A stretch of 64,000 nt of DNA, taken from NCBI RefSeq assembly GCF_029227855.1, contig NZ_CP074356.1. One strand, 5' to 3'. The notes beneath the pieces are model-generated. The model ran no database searches and was not told the origin of the DNA. It saw nothing but the letters and a program-made list of their open reading frames with translations. The translations under genes were made by a program, and so were the position numbers. The DNA comes from Escherichia coli. Its GTDB lineage: Bacteria; Pseudomonadota; Gammaproteobacteria; Enterobacterales; Enterobacteriaceae. Positions 1,884-12,680 of this stretch are shown piece by piece; position 1 is the first letter of the stretch; the number at the start of each line of letters is the position of its first letter.

Positions 1884-1926
1884 CAAAAAAACCGCCAGCG
1901 TTTCCGCTGGCGGTTTTCTTTTCTTT
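1884..1926. terminator. Bidirectional intrinsic terminator between ybfA and rhsC
   Basis: Perfect 10-bp stem accgccagcg / cgctggcggt with loop tttc, flanked by an A-run upstream and a T-run downstream. Confidence 0.7.
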
Positions 1927-1944
1927 GAACGTAATATTTAGCAA

Positions 1945-2151
1945 TCAGTAAAAATCACCAGTTGCCTTTTCTGCCTGATCCATCCACACCGGTTTCTCGC
2001 TGGTTTTCGACCAGACGCGGTGCAGGTAGCTGTAAAAGCGGGCGCGGTCTTTCCAGAAAAGCATGAAAGGCAGCGCCAGAACGCCCGCTGCAACCGCATA
2101 AGTACGGCGTAAAAAGATAAGCCATGCAGGATATTCTCTGTAGAGTTCCAT
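1945..2151 (-). CDS. ybfA: Small membrane protein YbfA (68 aa)
   Basis: ORF track 68 aa [23 protein letters not shown]...; position next to kdp and rhsC as in E. coli. Confidence 0.85.
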
Positions 2152-2360
2152 ACTTTTCTCCCCCTTTTGTATCTACCCGGTGAATGGCACCGGAAAAATG
2201 AATTTGTTTATCTGATGAAAATAGTACCGCCTTTTGTGTAATTTTACTACTCATCCGACCACTTATTTTTGCTTATTGATGGTTTATTTACATTCATCGT
2301 GTAATTAAGTTACACAAAAGTTAAATTAATACTAACCATCAGTTAAATCATGGCTTTTGC

Positions 2361-2384
2361 CATTTTTATACTTTTTTTACATCC
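2361..2384 (+). promoter_or_regulatory. KdpE-binding site of the kdpFABC promoter
   Basis: Sequence catttttatactttttttacatcc, a T-rich element I recall as the KdpE operator upstream of kdpF. Confidence 0.6.
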
Positions 2385-2463
2385 CGCCCGAAGATTTTTG
2401 CGAAATCTTTGCAGCCAGAATTCTACCCTTCCGGTATCACTTTTAGGCCACTGGAGGTGCACT

Positions 2464-2553
2464 GTGAGTGCAGGCGTGATAGCCGGCGTGTTGCTGGTGT
2501 TTTTATTACTGGGTTATCTGGTTTATGCCCTGATCAATGCGGAGGCGTTCTGA
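2464..2553 (+). CDS. kdpF: KdpF, 29-aa stabilising subunit of the Kdp K+-ATPase
   Basis: GTG start at 2464; translation [29 protein letters not shown]; stop TGA overlaps the kdpA ATG (tgATGg). Confidence 0.85.
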
Positions 2554-4226
2554 TGGCTGCGCAAGGGTTCTTACTGATTGCCACGTTTTTACTGGTGTTA
2601 ATGGTGCTGGCACGTCCTTTAGGCAGCGGGCTGGCGCGGCTGATTAATGACATACCTCTTCCCGGTACAGCGGGTGTTGAACGCGTACTTTTTCGTTTAC
2701 CTGGCGTCTCTGACAGTGAGATGAACTGGAAGCAGTATCTCTGTGCCATTCTCGGCCTGAACATGCTGGGGCTGGCGGTGCTGTTTTTTATGTTGCTCGG
2801 TCAGCGCTATCTGCCGCTTAATCCACAGCAGTTGCCAGGGCTGTCATGGGATCTGGCGCTGAATACCGCCGTCAGCTTTGTCACCAATACCAACTGGCAA
2901 TCTTATAACGGTGAAACCACGTTGAGCTATTTCAGCCAGATGGCGGGCTTAACGGTGCAAAACTTTCTTTCTGCCGCCAGCGGGATTGCGGTGATTTTTG
3001 CCCTCATTCGTGCATTTACCCGCCAGAGCATGAGCACACTCGGGAATGCCTGGGTCGATCTGCTACGCATCACGTTATGGGTGCTAGTCCCTGTGGCGTT
3101 GTTGATCGCACTGTTTTTTATTCAACAAGGTGCACTGCAAAACTTTCTGCCCTATCAGGCGGTGAATACCGTTGAAGGAGCGAAACAGCTGTTACCAATG
3201 GGTCCGGTGGCTTCTCAGGACGCGATCAAGATGCTCGGCACTAACGGCGGTGGTTTCTTTAATGCCAACTCGTCGCATCCGTTTGAAAACCCAACCGCAC
3301 TGACCAACTTCGTGCAGATGCTGGCGATCTTCTTGATCCCAACAGCGCTGTGCTTTGCCTTTGGTGAAGTGGCGGGCGATCGCCGCCAGGGGCGCATGTT
3401 GCTGTGGGCGATGTCAGTGATTTTTGTCATCTGCGTAGGCGTGGTGATGTGGGCAGAAGTTCAGGGTAATCCTCATCTGCTGGCACTGGGCGCGGACAGC
3501 AGCATCAATATGGAAGGTAAAGAGAGCCGTTTCGGCGTGCTGGTCAGTAGCCTGTTTGCGGTCGTGACTACGGCGGCTTCCTGTGGCGCGGTGATTGCGA
3601 TGCATGATTCGTTTACCGCTCTCGGTGGCATGGTGCCGATGTGGCTGATGCAAATTGGTGAAGTGGTGTTCGGCGGTGTCGGTTCTGGTCTTTACGGCAT
3701 GATGCTGTTTGTCCTGCTGGCGGTGTTTATTGCCGGGCTGATGATTGGTCGTACACCGGAATATCTGGGTAAAAAAATCGACGTACGTGAGATGAAACTG
3801 ACTGCACTGGCGATTCTGGTTACTCCAACACTTGTGCTGATGGGCGCGGCGTTGGCGATGATGACCGACGCCGGACGTAGCGCCATGCTCAACCCTGGCC
3901 CGCATGGTTTTAGCGAAGTGCTGTACGCCGTGTCATCCGCCGCTAACAACAACGGAAGCGCCTTTGCCGGATTAAGCGCCAACTCTCCATTCTGGAACTG
4001 TTTACTGGCGTTCTGCATGTTTGTCGGTCGCTTCGGGGTGATTATCCCGGTGATGGCAATTGCCGGTTCGCTGGTGAGTAAAAAGAGCCAACCCGCCAGC
4101 TCCGGCACGCTGCCAACGCACGGCCCGCTGTTTGTTGGCCTGTTAATCGGCACCGTATTGCTGGTTGGCGCACTGACCTTTATCCCTGCCCTGGCGCTTG
4201 GTCCGGTGGCGGAATATCTCTCCTGA
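2553..4226 (+). CDS. kdpA: Potassium-transporting ATPase subunit A (557 aa)
   Basis: In-frame ATG at 2553 within ORF 2409..4226; [33 protein letters not shown]... matches KdpA; K-12 length 557 aa. Confidence 0.95.
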
Positions 4227-4248
4227 TGATATTGAGTGAGCACTGAAT

Positions 4249-6297
4249 ATGAGTCGTAAACAACTGGCGCTATTCGAACCAACACTTGTCGTTCAGGCGC
4301 TGAAAGAAGCGGTGAAAAAATTAAACCCGCAGGCGCAATGGCGCAATCCGGTGATGTTTATCGTCTGGATCGGCAGTCTGTTAACCACCTTTATTAGCAT
4401 CGCGATGGCAAGCGGTGCGATGCCTGGCAATGCGCTGTTTAGCGCGGCAATTAGCGGCTGGCTGTGGGTCACCGTACTGTTCGCTAATTTCGCCGAGGCG
4501 CTGGCAGAAGGCCGCAGTAAAGCGCAGGCCAACAGTCTGAAAGGGGTGAAAAAAACTGCCTTTGCCCGCAAGCTTCGTGAGCCGAAATATGGCGCTGCGG
4601 CGGACAAAGTTCCTGCCGATCAACTGCGTAAAGGCGATATCGTACTGGTAGAAGCTGGCGATATTATCCCCTGCGATGGTGAAGTCATTGAAGGGGGCGC
4701 ATCGGTCGATGAAAGCGCCATCACCGGGGAATCGGCACCGGTGATCCGTGAATCCGGCGGCGATTTTGCCTCCGTCACTGGCGGCACGCGTATTCTTTCT
4801 GACTGGCTGGTGATTGAGTGCAGCGTTAACCCCGGCGAGACATTTCTGGATCGAATGATCGCGATGGTGGAAGGCGCGCAGCGACGCAAAACGCCGAACG
4901 AGATTGCCCTGACCATCCTGCTGATTGCCCTGACTATCGTCTTTTTACTGGCAACCGCCACGCTGTGGCCGTTTTCCGCGTGGGGCGGTAATGCAGTCAG
5001 TGTAACGGTACTGGTGGCGCTGCTGGTCTGTCTGATCCCAACCACTATTGGCGGCCTGTTGTCAGCGATCGGCGTCGCCGGGATGAGTCGGATGCTGGGC
5101 GCGAATGTGATTGCCACCAGCGGACGTGCAGTTGAAGCAGCGGGTGACGTTGACGTCCTGCTACTGGATAAAACCGGCACCATCACACTCGGTAACCGTC
5201 AGGCATCGGAGTTTATCCCCGCGCAGGGCGTGGATGAAAAAACGCTGGCTGACGCCGCACAACTGGCTTCGCTGGCTGATGAAACGCCGGAAGGTCGCAG
5301 TATTGTGATCCTCGCCAAGCAACGTTTTAACCTGCGCGAGCGCGATGTGCAGTCGCTCCATGCCACCTTTGTACCGTTTACTGCGCAAAGCCGGATGAGC
5401 GGGATCAACATCGACAACCGCATGATCCGTAAAGGTTCTGTCGATGCCATTCGCCGCCATGTTGAGGCTAATGGTGGTCACTTCCCTGCCGACGTCGATC
5501 AAAAAGTCGATCAAGTAGCACGCCTGGGGGCAACACCGCTGGTCGTGGTGGAAGGTTCCCGCGTGTTGGGCGTTATTGCGCTAAAAGATATCGTCAAAGG
5601 CGGTATTAAAGAGCGCTTCGCCCAACTGCGCAAAATGGGCATTAAAACGGTGATGATTACCGGCGATAACCGTCTGACTGCCGCCGCCATTGCTGCGGAA
5701 GCGGGCGTCGATGATTTCCTCGCCGAAGCGACACCAGAAGCCAAGCTGGCATTGATTCGTCAGTATCAGGCAGAAGGCCGTTTAGTGGCGATGACCGGCG
5801 ATGGCACCAACGATGCTCCGGCGCTGGCGCAGGCAGATGTCGCGGTGGCGATGAACTCCGGTACTCAGGCGGCGAAAGAAGCGGGCAATATGGTGGATCT
5901 CGACTCTAACCCGACCAAGTTGATCGAGGTGGTACATATTGGCAAACAGATGCTGATGACCCGTGGCTCGCTGACCACCTTCAGCATTGCCAACGATGTG
6001 GCGAAATACTTCGCCATTATTCCGGCGGCGTTCGCGGCAACGTATCCACAGTTAAATGCGCTGAACATCATGCGCCTGCATTCGCCCGACTCCGCAATCC
6101 TCAGTGCGGTGATTTTCAACGCCTTGATTATCGTCTTTTTGATTCCCCTAGCGTTAAAAGGCGTGAGTTATAAACCGCTTACCGCTTCTGCCATGTTGCG
6201 CCGTAACTTATGGATTTACGGTCTGGGTGGGCTGCTGGTGCCGTTTATCGGTATCAAAGTCATTGATTTACTGCTGACCGTTTGCGGTCTGGTGTGA
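4249..6297 (+). CDS. kdpB: Potassium-transporting P-type ATPase subunit B (682 aa)
   Basis: ORF track 682 aa with P-type ATPase motifs DKTGTIT and [12 protein letters not shown]. Confidence 0.95.
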
Positions 6298-6305
6298 GGT
6301 TTACC

Positions 6306-6878
6306 ATGCGTGGATTACGTCCGACATTATCGACATTTCTCTTTCTGTTATTGATTACTGGCGGCGTTTACCCGCTGCTAACCACCGTGCTGGGGCAATG
6401 GTGGTTTCCCTGGCAGGCCAACGGTTCGTTGATTCGTGAAGGTGATACGGTGCGCGGTTCGGCATTAATCGGGCAGAATTTTACCGGCAACGGCTATTTT
6501 CAGGGTCGCCCGTCGGCAACGGCAGAAATGCCCTATAATCCACAGGCTTCTGGCGGGAGCAACCTGGCGGTCAGTAACCCTGAGCTGGATAAACTAATAG
6601 CCGCACGCGTTGCTGCATTACGGGCCGCTAACCCGGATGCCAGCGCGAACGTTCCGGTTGAACTGGTGACGGCATCGGCAAGCGGGCTGGACAATAACAT
6701 CACCCCGCAAGCGGCAGCCTGGCAGATCCCACGCGTGGCGAAAGCGCGCAATCTCAGCGTTGAACAGCTCACGCAGCTGATCGCAAAATACAGCCAACAA
6801 CCGCTGGTGAAATATATCGGCCAGCCGGTCGTCAACATTGTCGAACTCAATCTGGCGCTGGATAAACTTGATGAATAA
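6306..6878 (+). CDS. kdpC: Potassium-transporting ATPase subunit C (190 aa)
   Basis: Second ATG of ORF 6282..6878 gives the 190-aa K-12 length ([25 protein letters not shown]...); the upstream ATG at 6282 is an alternative start. Confidence 0.85.
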
Positions 6879-9555
6879 CGAACCTTTACGTCCCGACCCC
6901 GATCGTCTGCTGGAACAAACTGCCGCGCCGCATCGGGGGAAGCTGAAAGTTTTCTTCGGTGCCTGCGCAGGCGTCGGAAAGACCTGGGCGATGCTGGCAG
7001 AGGCCCAGCGACTGCGGGCGCAAGGGCTGGATATTGTGGTTGGCGTGGTTGAAACCCACGGGCGGAAAGATACCGCCGCAATGCTGGAAGGGCTGGCTGT
7101 TCTGCCGCCCAAACGCCAGGCGTACCGTGGGCGGCATATCAGCGAGTTTGATCTCGATGCCGCCCTCGCCCGCCGTCCGGCGCTGATCTTAATGGACGAA
7201 CTGGCGCACAGTAATGCGCCAGGTTCTCGTCATCCTAAACGCTGGCAGGACATCGAAGAACTGCTGGAAGCGGGCATTGATGTTTTCACTACCGTCAACG
7301 TTCAGCATCTGGAAAGCCTGAATGATGTGGTCAGTGGCGTCACCGGAATTCAGGTACGAGAAACCGTGCCCGATCCTTTTTTCGATGCCGCCGACGACGT
7401 GGTGCTGGTGGACTTGCCCCCGGACGATCTGCGTCAACGGCTGAAAGAAGGTAAAGTCTATATTGCCGGGCAGGCGGAACGCGCCATTGAACATTTTTTT
7501 CGTAAAGGTAATCTGATCGCCCTGCGCGAATTGGCACTGCGCCGTACTGCCGATCGCGTAGATGAGCAAATGCGCGCCTGGCGGGGGCATCCTGGCGAAG
7601 AGAAAGTCTGGCACACGCGCGACGCGATCCTTTTATGCATCGGCCATAACACTGGTAGTGAGAAACTGGTCCGCGCGGCGGCGCGGCTGGCGTCACGGCT
7701 GGGTAGCGTCTGGCACGCGGTGTATGTTGAAACCCCTACCCTGCATCGCTTACCGGAGAAAAAACGTCGGGCAATTCTCAGCGCCTTACGTCTGGCGCAG
7801 GAGCTGGGCGCAGAGACGGCAACACTTTCTGATCCAGCGGAAGAGAAAGCGGTAGTGCGTTATGCCCGTGAACATAATCTCGGCAAGATTATTCTCGGTC
7901 GCCCAGCCTCGCGCCGCTGGTGGCGTCGGGAAACGTTTGCTGACCGACTGGCGCGCATCGCCCCCGATCTCGATCAGGTGCTGGTCGCGCTTGATGAACC
8001 ACCCGCTCGCACGATTAACAACGCGCCGGATAGCCGCTCTTTTAAAGACAAGTGGCGGGTACAGATTCAGGGATGCGTGGTTGCCGCCGCGTTATGCGCC
8101 GTTATCACCTTAATTGCCATGCAGTGGCTGATGGCGTTTGATGCCGCCAACCTGGTGATGCTGTATCTGCTTGGCGTGGTGGTGGTGGCACTGTTTTATG
8201 GGCGCTGGCCTTCGGTGGTCGCCACCGTCATTAATGTGGTGAGTTTCGATCTCTTTTTTATCGCCCCACGCGGCACGCTTGCCGTCTCTGATGTGCAATA
8301 TCTGCTGACCTTCGCGGTGATGTTAACCGTCGGGCTGGTGATCGGGAACCTTACTGCGGGCGTGCGTTATCAGGCGCGGGTAGCCCGTTACCGCGAGCAA
8401 CGCACACGGCACTTATATGAAATGTCGAAAGCTCTGGCGGTGGGCCGCAGTCCGCAGGACATCGCCGCCACCAGCGAACAGTTTATTGCCTCCACGTTTC
8501 ATGCCCGCAGTCAGGTGCTGTTACCCGATGACAACGGTAAATTGCAGCCGTTAACACATCCGCAAGGAATGACCCCGTGGGACGATGCCATCGCGCAGTG
8601 GAGTTTTGATAAAGGCCTGCCTGCGGGCGCGGGCACCGACACGTTACCCGGTGTACCGTACCAGATTTTGCCGCTAAAAAGCGGCGAGAAAACCTACGGA
8701 CTGGTGGTGGTGGAACCGGGGAATCTGCGCCAGTTGATGATCCCGGAACAGCAGCGCCTGCTGGAGACATTTACGTTGTTAGTCGCCAATGCCCTTGAGC
8801 GGCTGACACTGACCGCCAGCGAAGAACAGGCGCGGATGGCAAGCGAACGTGAACAGATCCGCAACGCCCTGCTGGCGGCGCTTTCGCATGATTTACGCAC
8901 TCCGCTCACGGTGCTGTTCGGTCAGGCAGAAATCTTAACGCTCGATCTGGCGAGCGAAGGATCGCCCCACGCCCGCCAGGCCAGCGAGATTCGTCAGCAT
9001 GTGCTGAACACCACCCGACTGGTGAATAATCTACTGGATATGGCACGAATTCAGTCCGGCGGCTTTAATTTGAAGAAAGAGTGGTTAACGCTGGAAGAAG
9101 TGGTCGGCAGCGCGCTGCAAATGCTGGAACCGGGTTTATCGTCGACCATCAATCTTTCTCTGCCAGAACCGCTGACCTTAATCCACGTTGACGGGCCACT
9201 CTTTGAACGGGTGCTGATTAATCTGCTGGAGAACGCGGTGAAATACGCGGGGGCGCAGGCCGAAATTGGTATCAATGCCCACGTTGAGGGCGAAAATCTA
9301 CAACTGGATGTCTGGGATAACGGCCCCGGTCTTCCACCAGGCCAGGAGCAGACGATATTTGATAAGTTTGCTCGCGGGAATAAAGAGTCGGCGGTACCGG
9401 GTGTAGGGCTTGGGTTGGCAATTTGTCGGGCGATAGTGGATGTACACGGCGGCACCATTACCGCATTCAACCGACCGGAAGGTGGTGCCTGTTTTCGTGT
9501 TACACTTCCCCAGCAAACAGCCCCTGAACTTGAAGAATTTCATGAGGATATGTGA
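6871..9555 (+). CDS. kdpD: Sensor histidine kinase KdpD (894 aa)
   Basis: ATG at 6871 inside ORF 6838..9555 gives [16 protein letters not shown]... (894 aa as in K-12); C-terminal HisKA/HATPase region; 5' end overlaps kdpC stop. Confidence 0.95.
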
Positions 9556-10229
9556 CAAACGTTCTGATTGTTGAAGATGAACAGGCTATTCGTCGCTTTC
9601 TGCGCACGGCGCTGGAGGGCGACGGGATGCGCGTCTATGAGGCCGAAACGCTGCAACGCGGCTTGCTGGAAGCGGCTACCCGTAAGCCAGATTTGATTAT
9701 TCTCGATCTCGGCCTGCCCGATGGTGATGGGATTGAGTTTATCCGCGACCTGCGCCAGTGGAGCGCAGTGCCAGTGATTGTGCTTTCCGCACGCAGCGAA
9801 GAGAGCGACAAAATCGCCGCGCTGGATGCCGGAGCGGATGATTACCTGAGTAAGCCGTTTGGCATTGGCGAATTGCAGGCCCGTCTGCGCGTCGCTTTAC
9901 GCCGCCACTCCGCCACCACCGCGCCCGATCCGCTGGTGAAATTTTCCGATGTTACCGTCGATTTAGCAGCTCGTGTGATCCATCGCGGTGAGGAAGAGGT
10001 GCATCTCACCCCGATTGAGTTCCGCCTGCTGGCGGTGCTGCTGAATAACGCCGGGAAAGTGCTCACCCAGCGCCAGCTCCTTAACCAAGTGTGGGGGCCA
10101 AACGCGGTCGAACACAGTCATTATTTGCGTATTTATATGGGACATCTGCGACAAAAACTGGAGCAAGATCCCGCCCGCCCCCGCCACTTCATTACTGAAA
10201 CCGGTATTGGGTATCGGTTTATGCTTTAG
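9552..10229 (+). CDS. kdpE: Response regulator KdpE (225 aa)
   Basis: ORF track 225 aa [17 protein letters not shown]... OmpR-family; start overlaps kdpD stop (ATGA). Confidence 0.95.
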   Translation: MTNVLIVEDEQAIRRFLRTALEGDGMRVYEAETLQRGLLEAATRKPDLIILDLGLPDGDGIEFIRDLRQWSAVPVIVLSARSEESDKIAALDAGADDYLSKPFGIGELQARLRVALRRHSATTAPDPLVKFSDVTVDLAARVIHRGEEEVHLTPIEFRLLAVLLNNAGKVLTQRQLLNQVWGPNAVEHSHYLRIYMGHLRQKLEQDPARPRHFITETGIGYRFML

Positions 10230-10242
10230 GCGGTTAAATGCT

Positions 10243-10328
10243 GGATCCGGCATGAACGCCTTATCCGACCTACACATCGTCCCGTAGGCATGATAAGACG
10301 CGTCAGCGTCGCATCAGGCATGGCACTC
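10243..10328. repeat. REP/BIME-type palindromic repeats in the kdpE-ybfP spacer
   Basis: ggatccggcatgaacgccttatccgacctaca and gtaggcatgataagacgcgtcagcgtcgcatcaggca are typical REP units. Confidence 0.65.
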
Positions 10329-10340
10329 ATCGCGATATGT

Positions 10341-10835
10341 TTAATGCGTATTTATCTGTTTCAACTCTTGCTGGCATTTTTCTGACTGGCAGCGTCGCAA
10401 CTCGATAATCCCGACATGCATCATCGAGCCAAAAAATCCGCTTTCGCTGACATAATCCTCATTAACAATCGGTCGAGTGCCAGGCTTGCCCTGGCAAACC
10501 CGCATAAAAAATGAGGTGTAGCACTGCCAGCCACGATTTAAACTGCTCTTTTCTTGTGGTGACATATCGTGAAGATAAGTAAGTTCTTTTTCGTTCCCGC
10601 CTGACAACTGCCAGCGGCGGGTATTATCAGGTAAGTTATCGCCACGGCAATTTGTCTTACACCGGGAAGGCGCAATATTTACCGCAATGCTACCCGTTAA
10701 TCCTCTGGTTTTATCTTTAGGGGTCAGTAACCAGTCACCAGCTAATGATGATTGTTCAGGTTGGGCGCATGCTGTCAGCAGTAGTGTGGCGGTAATTAAT
10801 GCCACTCTGACGACCAGACTCCTTTTGGTCTTCAT
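10341..10835 (-). CDS. ybfP: Lipoprotein YbfP (about 164 aa)
   Basis: ORF 10341..10886; likely start at internal MKTKRSLVVRVALITATLLLTAC (signal peptide with lipobox LTAC); matches recalled YbfP. Confidence 0.75.
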   Translation of the reverse strand: MKTKRSLVVRVALITATLLLTACAQPEQSSLAGDWLLTPKDKTRGLTGSIAVNIAPSRCKTNCRGDNLPDNTRRWQLSGGNEKELTYLHDMSPQEKSSLNRGWQCYTSFFMRVCQGKPGTRPIVNEDYVSESGFFGSMMHVGIIELRRCQSEKCQQELKQINTH

Positions 10836-10883
10836 TTTGAATTCCCTTGAGCTATTCAGTTTGTTGGCAAAGTGCTCGTTGTT

Positions 10884-10992
10884 CATGCCGGATGCAGCGT
10901 GAACGCCTTATCCGGCCTACAAAATAGCGCAAATTCAATATATTGCACCATCTTCCCAGGCCTGATAAGCGTAGCGCATCAGGCAGTCATAA
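10884..10992. repeat. REP/BIME repeats between ybfP and pgm
   Basis: gccggatgcagcgtgaacgccttatccggcctaca ... ggcctgataagcgtagcgcatcaggca. Confidence 0.65.
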
Positions 10993-11039
10993 GCAAAAAA
11001 GGGCGATCTTCCGACCGCCCTTTTTCTTATTAAATGTGT

Positions 11040-12680
11040 TTACGCGTTTTTCAGAACTTCGCTAACAATCTCAACCGCTTCTTTCTCAATTTGCTTGCGA
11101 TGTTCTTCCCCAAGGAAGCTTTCACAATAGATCTTATAGGCGTCTTCCGTGCCTGACGGACGCGCGGCGAACCAGCCGTTGTCAGTCATCACTTTCAGAC
11201 CGCCGATAGAAGCACCATTGCCCGGTGCCGCAGTCAGGCGCGCGGTGATCGGGTCACCTGCCAGGGTGCTGGCGCTCACCATTTCCGGAGACAGCTTAGA
11301 CAACGCCGCTTTTTGTGCGGAAGTCGCAGCTGCCTGCAAACGGTTGTAGCTCGGCGCACCAAAGCGTTTTGCCAGTTCGTTGTAGTGTTCCTGCGGGTTC
11401 TTACCGGTGACAGCGGTGATTTCCGCCGCCAGCAGACACATGATGATGCCGTCTTTGTCGGTGGACCACGGCGTGCCGTCGAAACGCAGGAAGGAAGCCC
11501 CTGCGCTCTCTTCGCCGCCAAAGCCGAAGCTGCCGTCGAACAGACCATCAACAAACCATTTGAAACCTACCGGTACTTCTACCAGCTTACGGCCCAAATC
11601 ATTGACCACACGGTCGATCATCGCAGATGAAACCAGCGTTTTACCGACAGCAACATCTTTGCCCCACTGCGGACGGTGCTGGAACAGGTAGTTGATCGCC
11701 ACCGCCAGGTAGTGGTTCGGATTCATCAAACCTGCCGGAGTGACGATACCGTGACGGTCATAATCCGGGTCGTTAGCAAACGCCAGATCGAACTTATCAC
11801 GCAGTGCCAGCAGACCCGCCATCGCACACTCGGAGGAGCAGTCCATACGGATCGCACCGTCTTTATCTAGGTGCATAAAGCGGAAGGTTTGATCGACCTG
11901 ATCGTTAACGATGGTCAGGTTGAGATTGTAATACTCGCCAATACGCTTCCAGTATTCGATACCGGAACCGCCCAGCGGATCAACGCCAAGCGTCAGGCCC
12001 GCTTTCTGAATCGCCGCCATATCAACGATATCGGCCAGCCCTTCCACGAACGGCTGCACCAGATCCTGCTCTTTCACATGACCGGATGCCATCGCTTCGT
12101 CGAGGGAGATACGCTTCACACCTTTCAGGCCATCGGCCATCAGTGCGTTGGCCCTGTCTTCCACCACTTTGGTGACGTTGGTATCAGCCGGGCCACCATT
12201 TGGCGGGTTGTACTTGATACCACCATCTTCCGGCGGGTTATGGGACGGTGTAATCACGATACCGTCTGCCAGCGGGCCACCTTTTTTATTGTGAACCAGG
12301 ATGGCATTGGAAACGGCAGGCGTTGGAGTGAAGCCATTGTTTTCCTGCACAATAACATCAACGCCGTTCGCTGCCAGCACTTCCAGAACGGAAATGAACG
12401 CAGGCTCGGACAGGGCGTGAGTATCTTTACCCACATAGCAAGGGCCAGTGATGCCGTTTTTCGCACGTTCTTCAGCAATTGCCTGAGCGATCGCCAGAAT
12501 GTGCGGCTCGTTAAAGCTGTGGCGCGCTGCACTGCCACGGTGACCGGAAGTACCGAATTTCACCGCGTGCTCCGCATTCCCTGCTTCTGGTTTCAGTACA
12601 TAATATTGCGCCGTCAGTTGGGCGACGTTAATCAAATCACTCTGTTGTGCAGGTTGGCCTGCACGATTGTGGATTGCCAT
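11040..12680 (-). CDS. pgm: Phosphoglucomutase (546 aa)
   Basis: ORF 11040..12731; internal start [21 protein letters not shown]... gives the 546-aa K-12 length; phosphoserine motif [11 protein letters not shown]. Confidence 0.95.

Follow-up and report, generated by a model that had tools for sequence, protein, structure and literature searches.

We consider the following account very likely as a whole: the window (the entire stretch of Escherichia coli DNA analysed here, 64,000 nucleotides) carries a canonical, intact kdpFABCDE operon with the gene junctions of K-12, ribosomes probably reinitiate at its three overlaps, the kdpF/kdpA and kdpD/kdpE arrangements appear selected, and the kdpC/kdpD junction is labile. 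The product of kdpFABC is the high-affinity K+-importing P-type ATPase, and kdpDE encode the sensor kinase and response regulator for kdpFABC. The junctions themselves are ordinary biology that has been described before.

Gene content and start sites

The locus has 100% identity to strain JNEC-KY178 (NZ_AP045174.1), and of the 5426 E. coli genomes in a sequence search, 5414 cover 80% or more of the query. In RefSeq, the annotation of the identical genome (locus = window + 301) gives every gene the coordinates found here, with all five junction distances unchanged, and four further diverse E. coli have the same coordinates and junction strings. KdpA, KdpB and KdpC follow one another in the order A-B-C without internal stops, in agreement with the RefSeq gene names. 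Both regulatory genes lie 3' of kdpC: first the sensor kinase KdpD, with the GACAGVGKT motif (used as a search pattern) at its N-terminus, then KdpE, an OmpR-type regulator. An earlier note on this DNA had identified the same genes and called them known biology, in line with RefSeq, K-12, Pfam and solved structures. Its five junction distances (-1, +22, +8, -8, -4) are all correct against RefSeq and K-12, including the 1-nt TGATG overlap, the two short gaps and the 8-nt kdpC/kdpD overlap, and its description of kdpF as a 29-codon micro-ORF with a GTG start agrees with RefSeq and with conservation.

Table 1 Positions in the window of the kdp genes, their ribosome-binding (SD) motifs and their junctions.
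Feature	Position	Strand	Details
kdpF SD	2453..2457	+	GGAGG, 6 nt 5' of GTG start
kdpF	2464..2553	+	29 codons, GTG start, TGA stop; RefSeq CDS
kdpA SD	2541..2545	+	GGAGG, within last kdpF codons (GCG GAG G), 7 nt 5' of ATG
kdpF stop/kdpA start overlap	2551..2555	+	TGATG, 1 nt common to both, distance -1
kdpA	2553..4226	+	557 aa
kdpA-kdpB spacer	4227..4248	+	22 nt, second in-frame TGA first (tandem stop TGATGA, 4224-4229)
kdpB	4249..6297	+	682 aa
Rejected kdpC starts	6282..6296	+	TTG 6282-6284 and GTG 6294-6296, both within kdpB 3' end
kdpC SD	6296..6299	+	GAGG, overlaps kdpB stop (TGAGG), 6 nt 5' of ATG, -6.3 kcal/mol
kdpC	6306..6878	+	190 aa, ATG start, TAA stop; kdpB-kdpC distance +8
kdpC/kdpD overlap	6871..6878	+	ATGAATAA, 8 nt, distance -8
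kdpD	6871..9555	+	894 aa, ATG start, weak SD (GGA, -3.1 kcal/mol)
kdpE SD	9544..9548	+	GAGGA, within last kdpD codons
kdpD/kdpE overlap	9552..9555	+	GTGA, 4 nt, distance -4, inside ATGTGA 9550-9555
kdpE	9552..10229	+	225 aa, GTG start, TAG stop

KdpF, the small hydrophobic peptide encoded directly 5' of kdpA, matches Pfam PF09604 at 27.8 bits, above the cutoff of 21.2, and solved KdpFABC structures contain a 29-aa KdpF chain that matches the one encoded here. The anti-SD duplex energy at its start is -10.6 kcal/mol. Among the matches listed, the GTG start and the 29-aa length are kept across Enterobacterales, and 22 of 23 Enterobacterales species have an SD of comparable strength (-7.4 to -11.6 kcal/mol); the sole exception, Edwardsiella hoshinae, is called at a longer ATG start. 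We also considered ATG 2350, which opens a 67-aa ORF in the kdpF frame, and rejected it as a start: it has no SD, and the conserved form is the 29-aa one begun at GTG. The T-rich KdpE operator region known from K-12 would also lie 3' of this ATG.

On the evidence of its SD and of sequence comparison, kdpC starts at ATG 6306, which settles a choice between 6306 and 6282 that the earlier note had left ambiguous. A second in-frame upstream candidate, GTG 6294, was absent from that note. A start at TTG 6282 (198 aa) or GTG 6294 (194 aa), overlapping kdpB by 16 or 4 nt, is extremely improbable. Escherichia and Citrobacter have an open frame over the 13 codons 5' of the ATG, and TTG and GTG can both legally serve as starts; however, neither has an SD, and the TTG is confined to Escherichia among the matches listed. 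In 14 of the 26 Enterobacteriaceae species among those matches an in-frame kdpB stop lies 4 codons 5' of the ATG, so an N-terminal extension is excluded in species with the 12-nt kdpB-kdpC gap. The homologous ATG is exactly in place in 25 of these 26 species, and at the homologous position or a few codons off in nearly all relatives among the matches listed; the protein sequence is conserved from this ATG onwards, beginning M-x-x-L-R-P/S. Across Enterobacterales, the matches listed also show the same device at the end of kdpB, a stop codon within the SD (TGAGG / TAAGAGG / TAAGGA). KdpC scores 232.5 bits against Pfam PF02669, profile positions 2-182 corresponding to residues 5-187 of the 190-aa form, and the ATG is the start used in RefSeq and K-12 and for the Protein Data Bank KdpC chains, which begin at its Met.

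The start of kdpE is GTG 9552. The kdpD/kdpE overlap had been given as ATGA: its length of 4 nt was right, its motif is GTGA, and the start codon is hereby corrected to GTG. KdpE aligns over its full length, from residue 1, to Protein Data Bank chains 4kny and 4kfc. Read in the kdpD frame, the junction is GAG GAT ATG TGA, in which ATG 9550-9552 is the last sense codon of kdpD (Met894), in a different frame from kdpE. A survey of such atGTG-type (AUGUG) starts counts kdpE among 18 E. coli genes with an annotated GTG start inside ATGTG (PMC9841429); its Table 2 lists the SD as GAGG with an aligned spacing (DtoStart) of 12, and start-site ambiguity is not predicted there for kdpE. A competing AUG at this junction would encode only Met-stop, because UGA comes directly after it. 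This ATG is conserved only in Escherichia, Citrobacter and Pseudocitrobacter among the matches listed, and the AUG-UGA "start-stop" lying over the GUG might make kdpE initiation less efficient in Escherichia and Citrobacter, a minor effect that we think rather improbable.

Scans of the region for other signals added little. Rfam families were absent from 1900-11100. We looked for a promoter of kdpDE within kdpC by a sigma-70 consensus scan, which gave no plus-strand match inside the operon (2 matches overall against 5.6 expected), and a weak promoter is possible. Terminator-like hairpins, one of them inside kdpF (2482-2498), numbered 8 against 9.9 expected, which is chance level, and we discarded them.

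Conservation of the junctions

We compared the junctions across at least 120 species or loci. Outside Enterobacterales the automatic choice of start codon is less reliable and gene order is rearranged in a few loci, such as L113 and L114, so we rely mainly on the Enterobacterales counts. Conservation proved unequal: among the matches listed, kdpF/kdpA and kdpD/kdpE are conserved well beyond the labile kdpC/kdpD in the same genomes.

At kdpF/kdpA, the distance among the matches listed is -4 to +1 in 32 of 33 loci and -1 to +1 throughout the 23 Enterobacterales species, 17 of which have TGATG and the remainder 0 or +1. Among these matches, 22 of 23 Enterobacterales species keep the GCGGAGG that holds the kdpA SD unaltered at its synonymous positions, and neighbouring synonymous sites vary. 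At kdpD/kdpE, all 19 Enterobacteriaceae species among the matches listed have the -4 overlap in its GTGA form, and 17 of the 19 keep the GAGG of the kdpE SD. From these sequence patterns, both arrangements look selected. The kdpA-kdpB spacer is the same in five other E. coli, and this gap is mostly 10-22 nt in the Enterobacteriaceae species among the matches listed.

The kdpC/kdpD junction behaves differently. Its 8-nt overlap is invariant in E. coli and E. albertii, and the other sampled genera among the matches listed are without it: distances in other Enterobacteriaceae run from -4 to +12 nt, most with an AAGGA-type SD and a short gap (the Enterobacter-type junction is AAGGATAACTAAGCCATG), and in 14 of 40 other Enterobacterales species the gap exceeds 20 nt, with Serratia, Erwinia and Pectobacterium extending it to hundreds of nt. 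Because the overlap is found only in Escherichia among these matches and gaps vary elsewhere, it is not a conserved requirement. The exact overlap is, as judged by this comparison, a lineage-specific state of an evolutionarily labile, usually tight junction. Of the three overlaps, then, kdpF/kdpA and kdpD/kdpE are evolutionarily conserved among the matches listed and kdpC/kdpD is not; such conservation would support coupling without defining it.

Probable reinitiation at the overlaps and its alternatives

Translational coupling at the kdp overlaps is plausible, given their geometry and published tests on other E. coli pairs. The commonest distances between same-strand genes in prokaryotes are -4, -1 and -8 (PMC10666635), so the kdp values are typical of operons and not special. 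Coupling has been described as a general mechanism at stop-to-start distances of -8 to +10 nt (PMC6728339, PMC10666635), a range that takes in kdpF/kdpA, kdpB-kdpC, kdpC/kdpD and kdpD/kdpE and leaves out kdpA-kdpB at +22. Each downstream cistron has a purine-rich ribosome-binding motif inside or abutting the upstream gene; this motif is strong at kdpA, weak at kdpD and moderate at the other three, kdpB, kdpC and kdpE. As others have established, kdpDE are induced together with kdpFABC, on a polycistronic mRNA made by read-through (PMC7657598; PMC5716572, citing Polarek 1992).

Ribosomes ending the upstream gene would probably reinitiate locally at the -1, -8 and -4 overlaps (termination-reinitiation), helped by the internal SD sequences, and this would tie KdpA output to KdpF, KdpD to KdpC and KdpE to KdpD. 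Initiation at kdpB is probably largely de novo, and that at kdpC may be de novo or weakly coupled. The earlier note held that the kdpC-kdpD and kdpD-kdpE overlaps imply coupling of the structural and regulatory genes; "imply" is too strong, since one of five tested 4-nt overlaps proved uncoupled. Moreover, kdpC/kdpD, the junction that links the structural to the regulatory genes, has its overlap only in Escherichia among the matches listed. Response regulators are usually in excess of their kinases, and strict 1:1 reinitiation would not give an excess; such an excess would count against strict reinitiation at kdpD/kdpE. KdpD:KdpE synthesis ratios are absent from a quantitative Kdp paper (PMC3938482), and we searched the literature for experiments that test kdp coupling directly and found none.

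The overlaps might instead have arisen neutrally as the genome compacted and stop and start codons drifted, with each gene initiated at its own SD and no functional coupling. Independent initiation is possible at most downstream starts, because all but kdpD have a usable SD (-9.5 kcal/mol at kdpA, -5.6 at kdpE); the drift of kdpC/kdpD between -8 and +12 in a single family, and to its far wider gaps beyond, also fits, as does the uncoupled bioBF overlap (PMC6728339). Against this stand the constancy of kdpF/kdpA and kdpD/kdpE where kdpC/kdpD drifts, the weak kdpD SD of Escherichia, and the tests on native E. coli overlaps, four of five of which were coupled: of five 4-nt-overlap pairs assayed with reporters, three were strictly coupled, one about 60% and one, bioBF, uncoupled (PMC6728339). 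We regard neutrality as fairly unlikely. Coupling by RNA unfolding, in which each downstream ribosome-binding site is buried and opened only by a ribosome that translates the upstream gene, has been documented for other operons (review PMC12548453), but it is very unlikely here. For positions -15 to +3 of the kdp starts, the prediction gives unpaired probabilities of 0.28-0.37, inside the range that randomly chosen positions of this operon cover (percentile ranks 0.13-0.42); a sequestering structure was not predicted at any kdp start, which favours reinitiation over unfolding. With overlaps of 1-8 nt, moreover, a ribosome in the act of terminating would stand in the way of a new 30S subunit, as argued in PMC12548453.

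Reinitiation may carry a further consequence at kdpC/kdpD, although we think it rather improbable: in Escherichia, a shift from the AAGGA-type SD and short gap to an 8-nt overlap and a weak SD would have made KdpD synthesis from the induced polycistronic mRNA dependent on ribosomes terminating at kdpC, and so scaled with the pump. KdpD is also the serine kinase that switches KdpB off (PMC11018627), and such dependence, if true, would tie the KdpB-inactivating kinase to pump synthesis. Since one and the same operon holds an overlap that is conserved, another confined to one lineage, and two short gaps, kdp would be a convenient natural case for comparing these directly in experiments on coupling.

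Comparison with known systems

The operon shares with kdpFABCDE of K-12 MG1655 (b4513, b0698-b0694) its six genes, their order, their start codons, all five junction distances and the protein lengths of 29, 557, 682, 190, 894 and 225 aa. The Kdp proteins are 97-99% identical between the two, and the differences amount to ~3% nucleotide divergence with few substitutions, such as KdpF T7A and KdpC S2R/A7T. From this near-identity to a characterised system we infer K+ transport and induction by K+ limitation. The speFL-speF-potE genes, 3' of kdpE in K-12 MG1655, are missing from the window strain. The comparison confirms that the operon of this strain is intact and conventionally organised, and carries little weight beyond correct annotation.

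Histidine kinase and response regulator gene pairs with 4-nt overlaps are a known arrangement. Like these, kdpD/kdpE has a conserved distance of -4, here with the kinase first and the regulator second. The set of pairs in which Huber et al. 2019 and 2023 tested coupling (PMC6728339, PMC10666635) does not include those of kdp, whose coupling is putative. The kdp pairs resemble the coupled ones in having -4, -1 and -8 overlaps with an SD inside the upstream gene, and in that their products either belong to one heteromeric complex (KdpF/KdpA) or interact as partners (KdpD/KdpE).

Geometry of the kdp genes in the window

We inspected the open reading frames and the raw junction sequence, and then recomputed all six kdp genes; internal stops were absent from all six recomputed reading frames. 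The resulting distances from stop to start, -1 nt for kdpF/kdpA (TGATG), +22 for kdpA-kdpB, +8 for kdpB-kdpC, -8 for kdpC/kdpD (ATGAATAA) and -4 for kdpD/kdpE, are the five values that an earlier note had read from the sequence. Its ATGA at kdpD/kdpE has to be corrected: the tetranucleotide in common is GTGA, embedded in ATGTGA (9550-9555). Two in-frame stops in tandem, TGA TGA (4224-4229), end kdpA, as in every E. coli examined.

Coordinates of the kdp genes and their neighbors
Feature	Position	Strand	Description
ybfA and end of RHS element core protein gene	about 1-1697 and 1945-2151	-	upstream of kdp promoter
kdpF	2464-2553	+	GTG start, TGA stop, 29 codons
kdpA	2553-4226	+	ATG start, TGA stop, 557 aa
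kdpB	4249-6297	+	ATG start, TGA stop, 682 aa
kdpC	6306-6878	+	ATG start, TAA stop, 190 aa
kdpD	6871-9555	+	ATG start, TGA stop, 894 aa
kdpE	9552-10229	+	GTG start, TAG stop, 225 aa
164-aa ORF	10341-10835	-	annotated hypothetical or lipoprotein; followed by pgm

E. coli JNEC-KY178 matches the 8.2-kb region at 100% identity, and in the RefSeq annotation of the identical genome the kdp coordinates are exactly those tabulated. Among 5426 complete E. coli genomes, 5414 carry at least 80% of the region, with an identity that is mostly 95-99%. The same annotated geometry was found in four E. coli chosen across 96.1-97.1% identity, whose junction strings are near-identical (two single positions differ, both outside the overlap motifs). 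KdpF and KdpC are matched by Pfam, the protein starts are those in the solved KdpFABC and KdpE structures, and an Rfam scan returned no families in the kdp region. This is the organization of a textbook, well-studied operon; the earlier note's view of it as known biology is borne out. The annotation of K-12 MG1655 has the same five distances.

The kdpC start and the kdpC/kdpD junction in relatives

To compare species, one genome of each was searched with the KdpD N-terminal motif GACAGVGKT, which gave at least 120 loci, ~70 from Enterobacterales and the remainder mostly from beta- and alphaproteobacteria. Genes in relatives were found by tblastn, stops were read from the frame, and starts were placed where homology projected them, with Shine-Dalgarno pairing energy and the type of codon as weights.

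The earlier note had left the kdpC start ambiguous between 6306 and 6282. A GAGG lies ahead of ATG 6306 at 6-nt spacing (-6.3 kcal/mol). The two other candidates in frame, TTG 6282 and GTG 6294 (the latter unmentioned in that note), were rejected: both lack a Shine-Dalgarno motif, and the upstream TTG occurs only in Escherichia among the matches listed. Among the 26 Enterobacteriaceae species listed, the ATG lies exactly at the homologous position in 25, and in all 26 the kdpB-kdpC distance is +7 to +13, with the kdpB stop forming part of the Shine-Dalgarno sequence for kdpC (TGAGG, TAAGAGG or TAAGGA). The gap is 12 nt in 14 of these 26 listed species; there an N-terminal extension is impossible because the kdpB stop falls in the kdpC frame, four codons upstream of the ATG. 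Almost all relatives listed have this ATG at the homologous position or a few codons off, the conserved N-terminus from it reads M-x-x-L-R-P/S, and the second position of the Pfam KdpC profile falls on residue 5 of the 190-aa protein. Given the GAGG, the conserved ATG, the in-frame kdpB stops, the Escherichia-only TTG and the Pfam alignment, we regard the start as settled at ATG 6306; sequence comparison suffices for the choice, and experimental confirmation would be welcome.

In 26 of the 30 Enterobacteriaceae species listed the kdpC/kdpD distance is between -8 and +10, and the spacer is at most 12 nt in most of the family. The distance is +10 or -1 in Citrobacter, and 0, +2, +3 or -4 in Enterobacter and its relatives. 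Among the other Enterobacterales species listed, 14 of 40 have gaps above 20 nt, as long as about 50-300 nt in Serratia, Erwinia, Dickeya and Pectobacterium. At seven Serratia, Pectobacterium and Erwinia loci the spacer is 73-301 nt, a length that could accommodate a separate promoter or regulatory element. The kdpD Shine-Dalgarno sequence is weak in Escherichia (GGA, -3.1 kcal/mol); in most other Enterobacteriaceae listed, the variable tail of KdpC carries a motif of the AAGGA type. KdpD was recently shown to phosphorylate KdpB-S162 directly, and the authors argue that expressing the kinase domain by read-through, behind the pump genes, is important for a sufficient supply of inhibitor (PMC11018627). 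This offers a rationale, as argument rather than test, for keeping kdpD tight behind kdpC.

Translational coupling and the kdpD/kdpE overlap

A purine-rich motif precedes each downstream start, inside or abutting the preceding gene: strong for kdpA, moderate for kdpB, kdpC and kdpE, and weak for kdpD. The clearest, GCGGAGG (2539-2545, + strand), sits in the last kdpF codons, on the Ala-Glu pair of NAEAF, the conserved C-terminus of KdpF. At synonymous positions it is constant in 22 of the 23 Enterobacterales species listed whereas neighboring synonymous sites vary, which suggests a dual constraint from the KdpF peptide and the kdpA ribosome-binding site. Among the matches listed, kdpF/kdpA is TGATG in 17 of 23 Enterobacterales species (0 or +1 in the others), mostly ATGA in betaproteobacteria, and between -4 and +1 in 32 of 33 loci overall; most Enterobacterales keep the kdpF GTG start and 29-codon length, and the kdpA-kdpB gap is mostly +10 to +22 in Enterobacteriaceae.

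kdpD ends in the frame GAG GAT ATG TGA, so the ATG of ATGTGA is its final Met codon, in a different frame from the kdpE GTG (9552-9554). kdpE is one of 18 E. coli genes annotated with a GTG start inside ATGTG, listed with SD GAGG, aligned spacing 12 and start-site ambiguity not predicted (PMC9841429). AUG initiation here would yield Met-stop only; ATG TGA is a potential minimal 'start-stop' overlapping the kdpE start. Among the matches listed, kdpD/kdpE is -4 and always GTGA in 19 of 19 Enterobacteriaceae species, with GAGG ~4 nt upstream in 17, and the ATG is confined to Escherichia, Citrobacter and Pseudocitrobacter, with TTGTGA, CTGTGA or similar in the other genera. On this comparison, it is the GTG that is conserved. 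At four loci (Providencia vermicola and three Sphingomonas/Burkholderiaceae loci with one identical junction string), kdpD and kdpE seemed to overlap by 29 nt under automatic start choice, an overlap that may be real or a start-assignment artefact.

Among 2.66 million prokaryotic gene pairs the three most frequent distances are -4, -1 and -8, and reinitiation efficiency drops by 40-80% at +14 nt and is all but lost at +38 nt (PMC10666635). In tests of five native E. coli pairs that overlap by 4 nt, coupling was strict in three, ~60% in one and absent from the last (PMC6728339). Induction of kdpFABC extends to kdpDE by way of a read-through transcript (PMC7657598; likewise a passage of PMC5716572 citing Polarek 1992), and our literature search found no kdp-specific coupling experiment. 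Given this general evidence from other gene pairs, the overlaps make coupling likely, short of proof. The earlier reading that two of them (kdpC/kdpD and kdpD/kdpE) imply coupling is reasonable from the geometry, and overstated for kdpC/kdpD, where E. coli and E. albertii alone have the -8 overlap among the matches listed. RNA unfolding could in principle provide the coupling; because predicted accessibility at the kdp start regions is unremarkable, termination-reinitiation, in which a ribosome ending the upstream gene would reinitiate locally at the downstream start, would be the better candidate if coupling exists.

Flanking genes

K-12 and four other E. coli have speFL-speF-potE behind kdpE; these genes are absent downstream of kdpE in this strain (10230-11040), where at least 80% of the stretch is shared by ~2086 of 5426 genomes. 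The first ~100 nt after kdpE are repeated at a median of 20 sites in each genome, as would fit REP elements. The 164-aa ORF, without a Pfam match, is probably the YbfP homologue. Upstream, K-12 has the same arrangement, and its RHS element core protein gene is rhsC.
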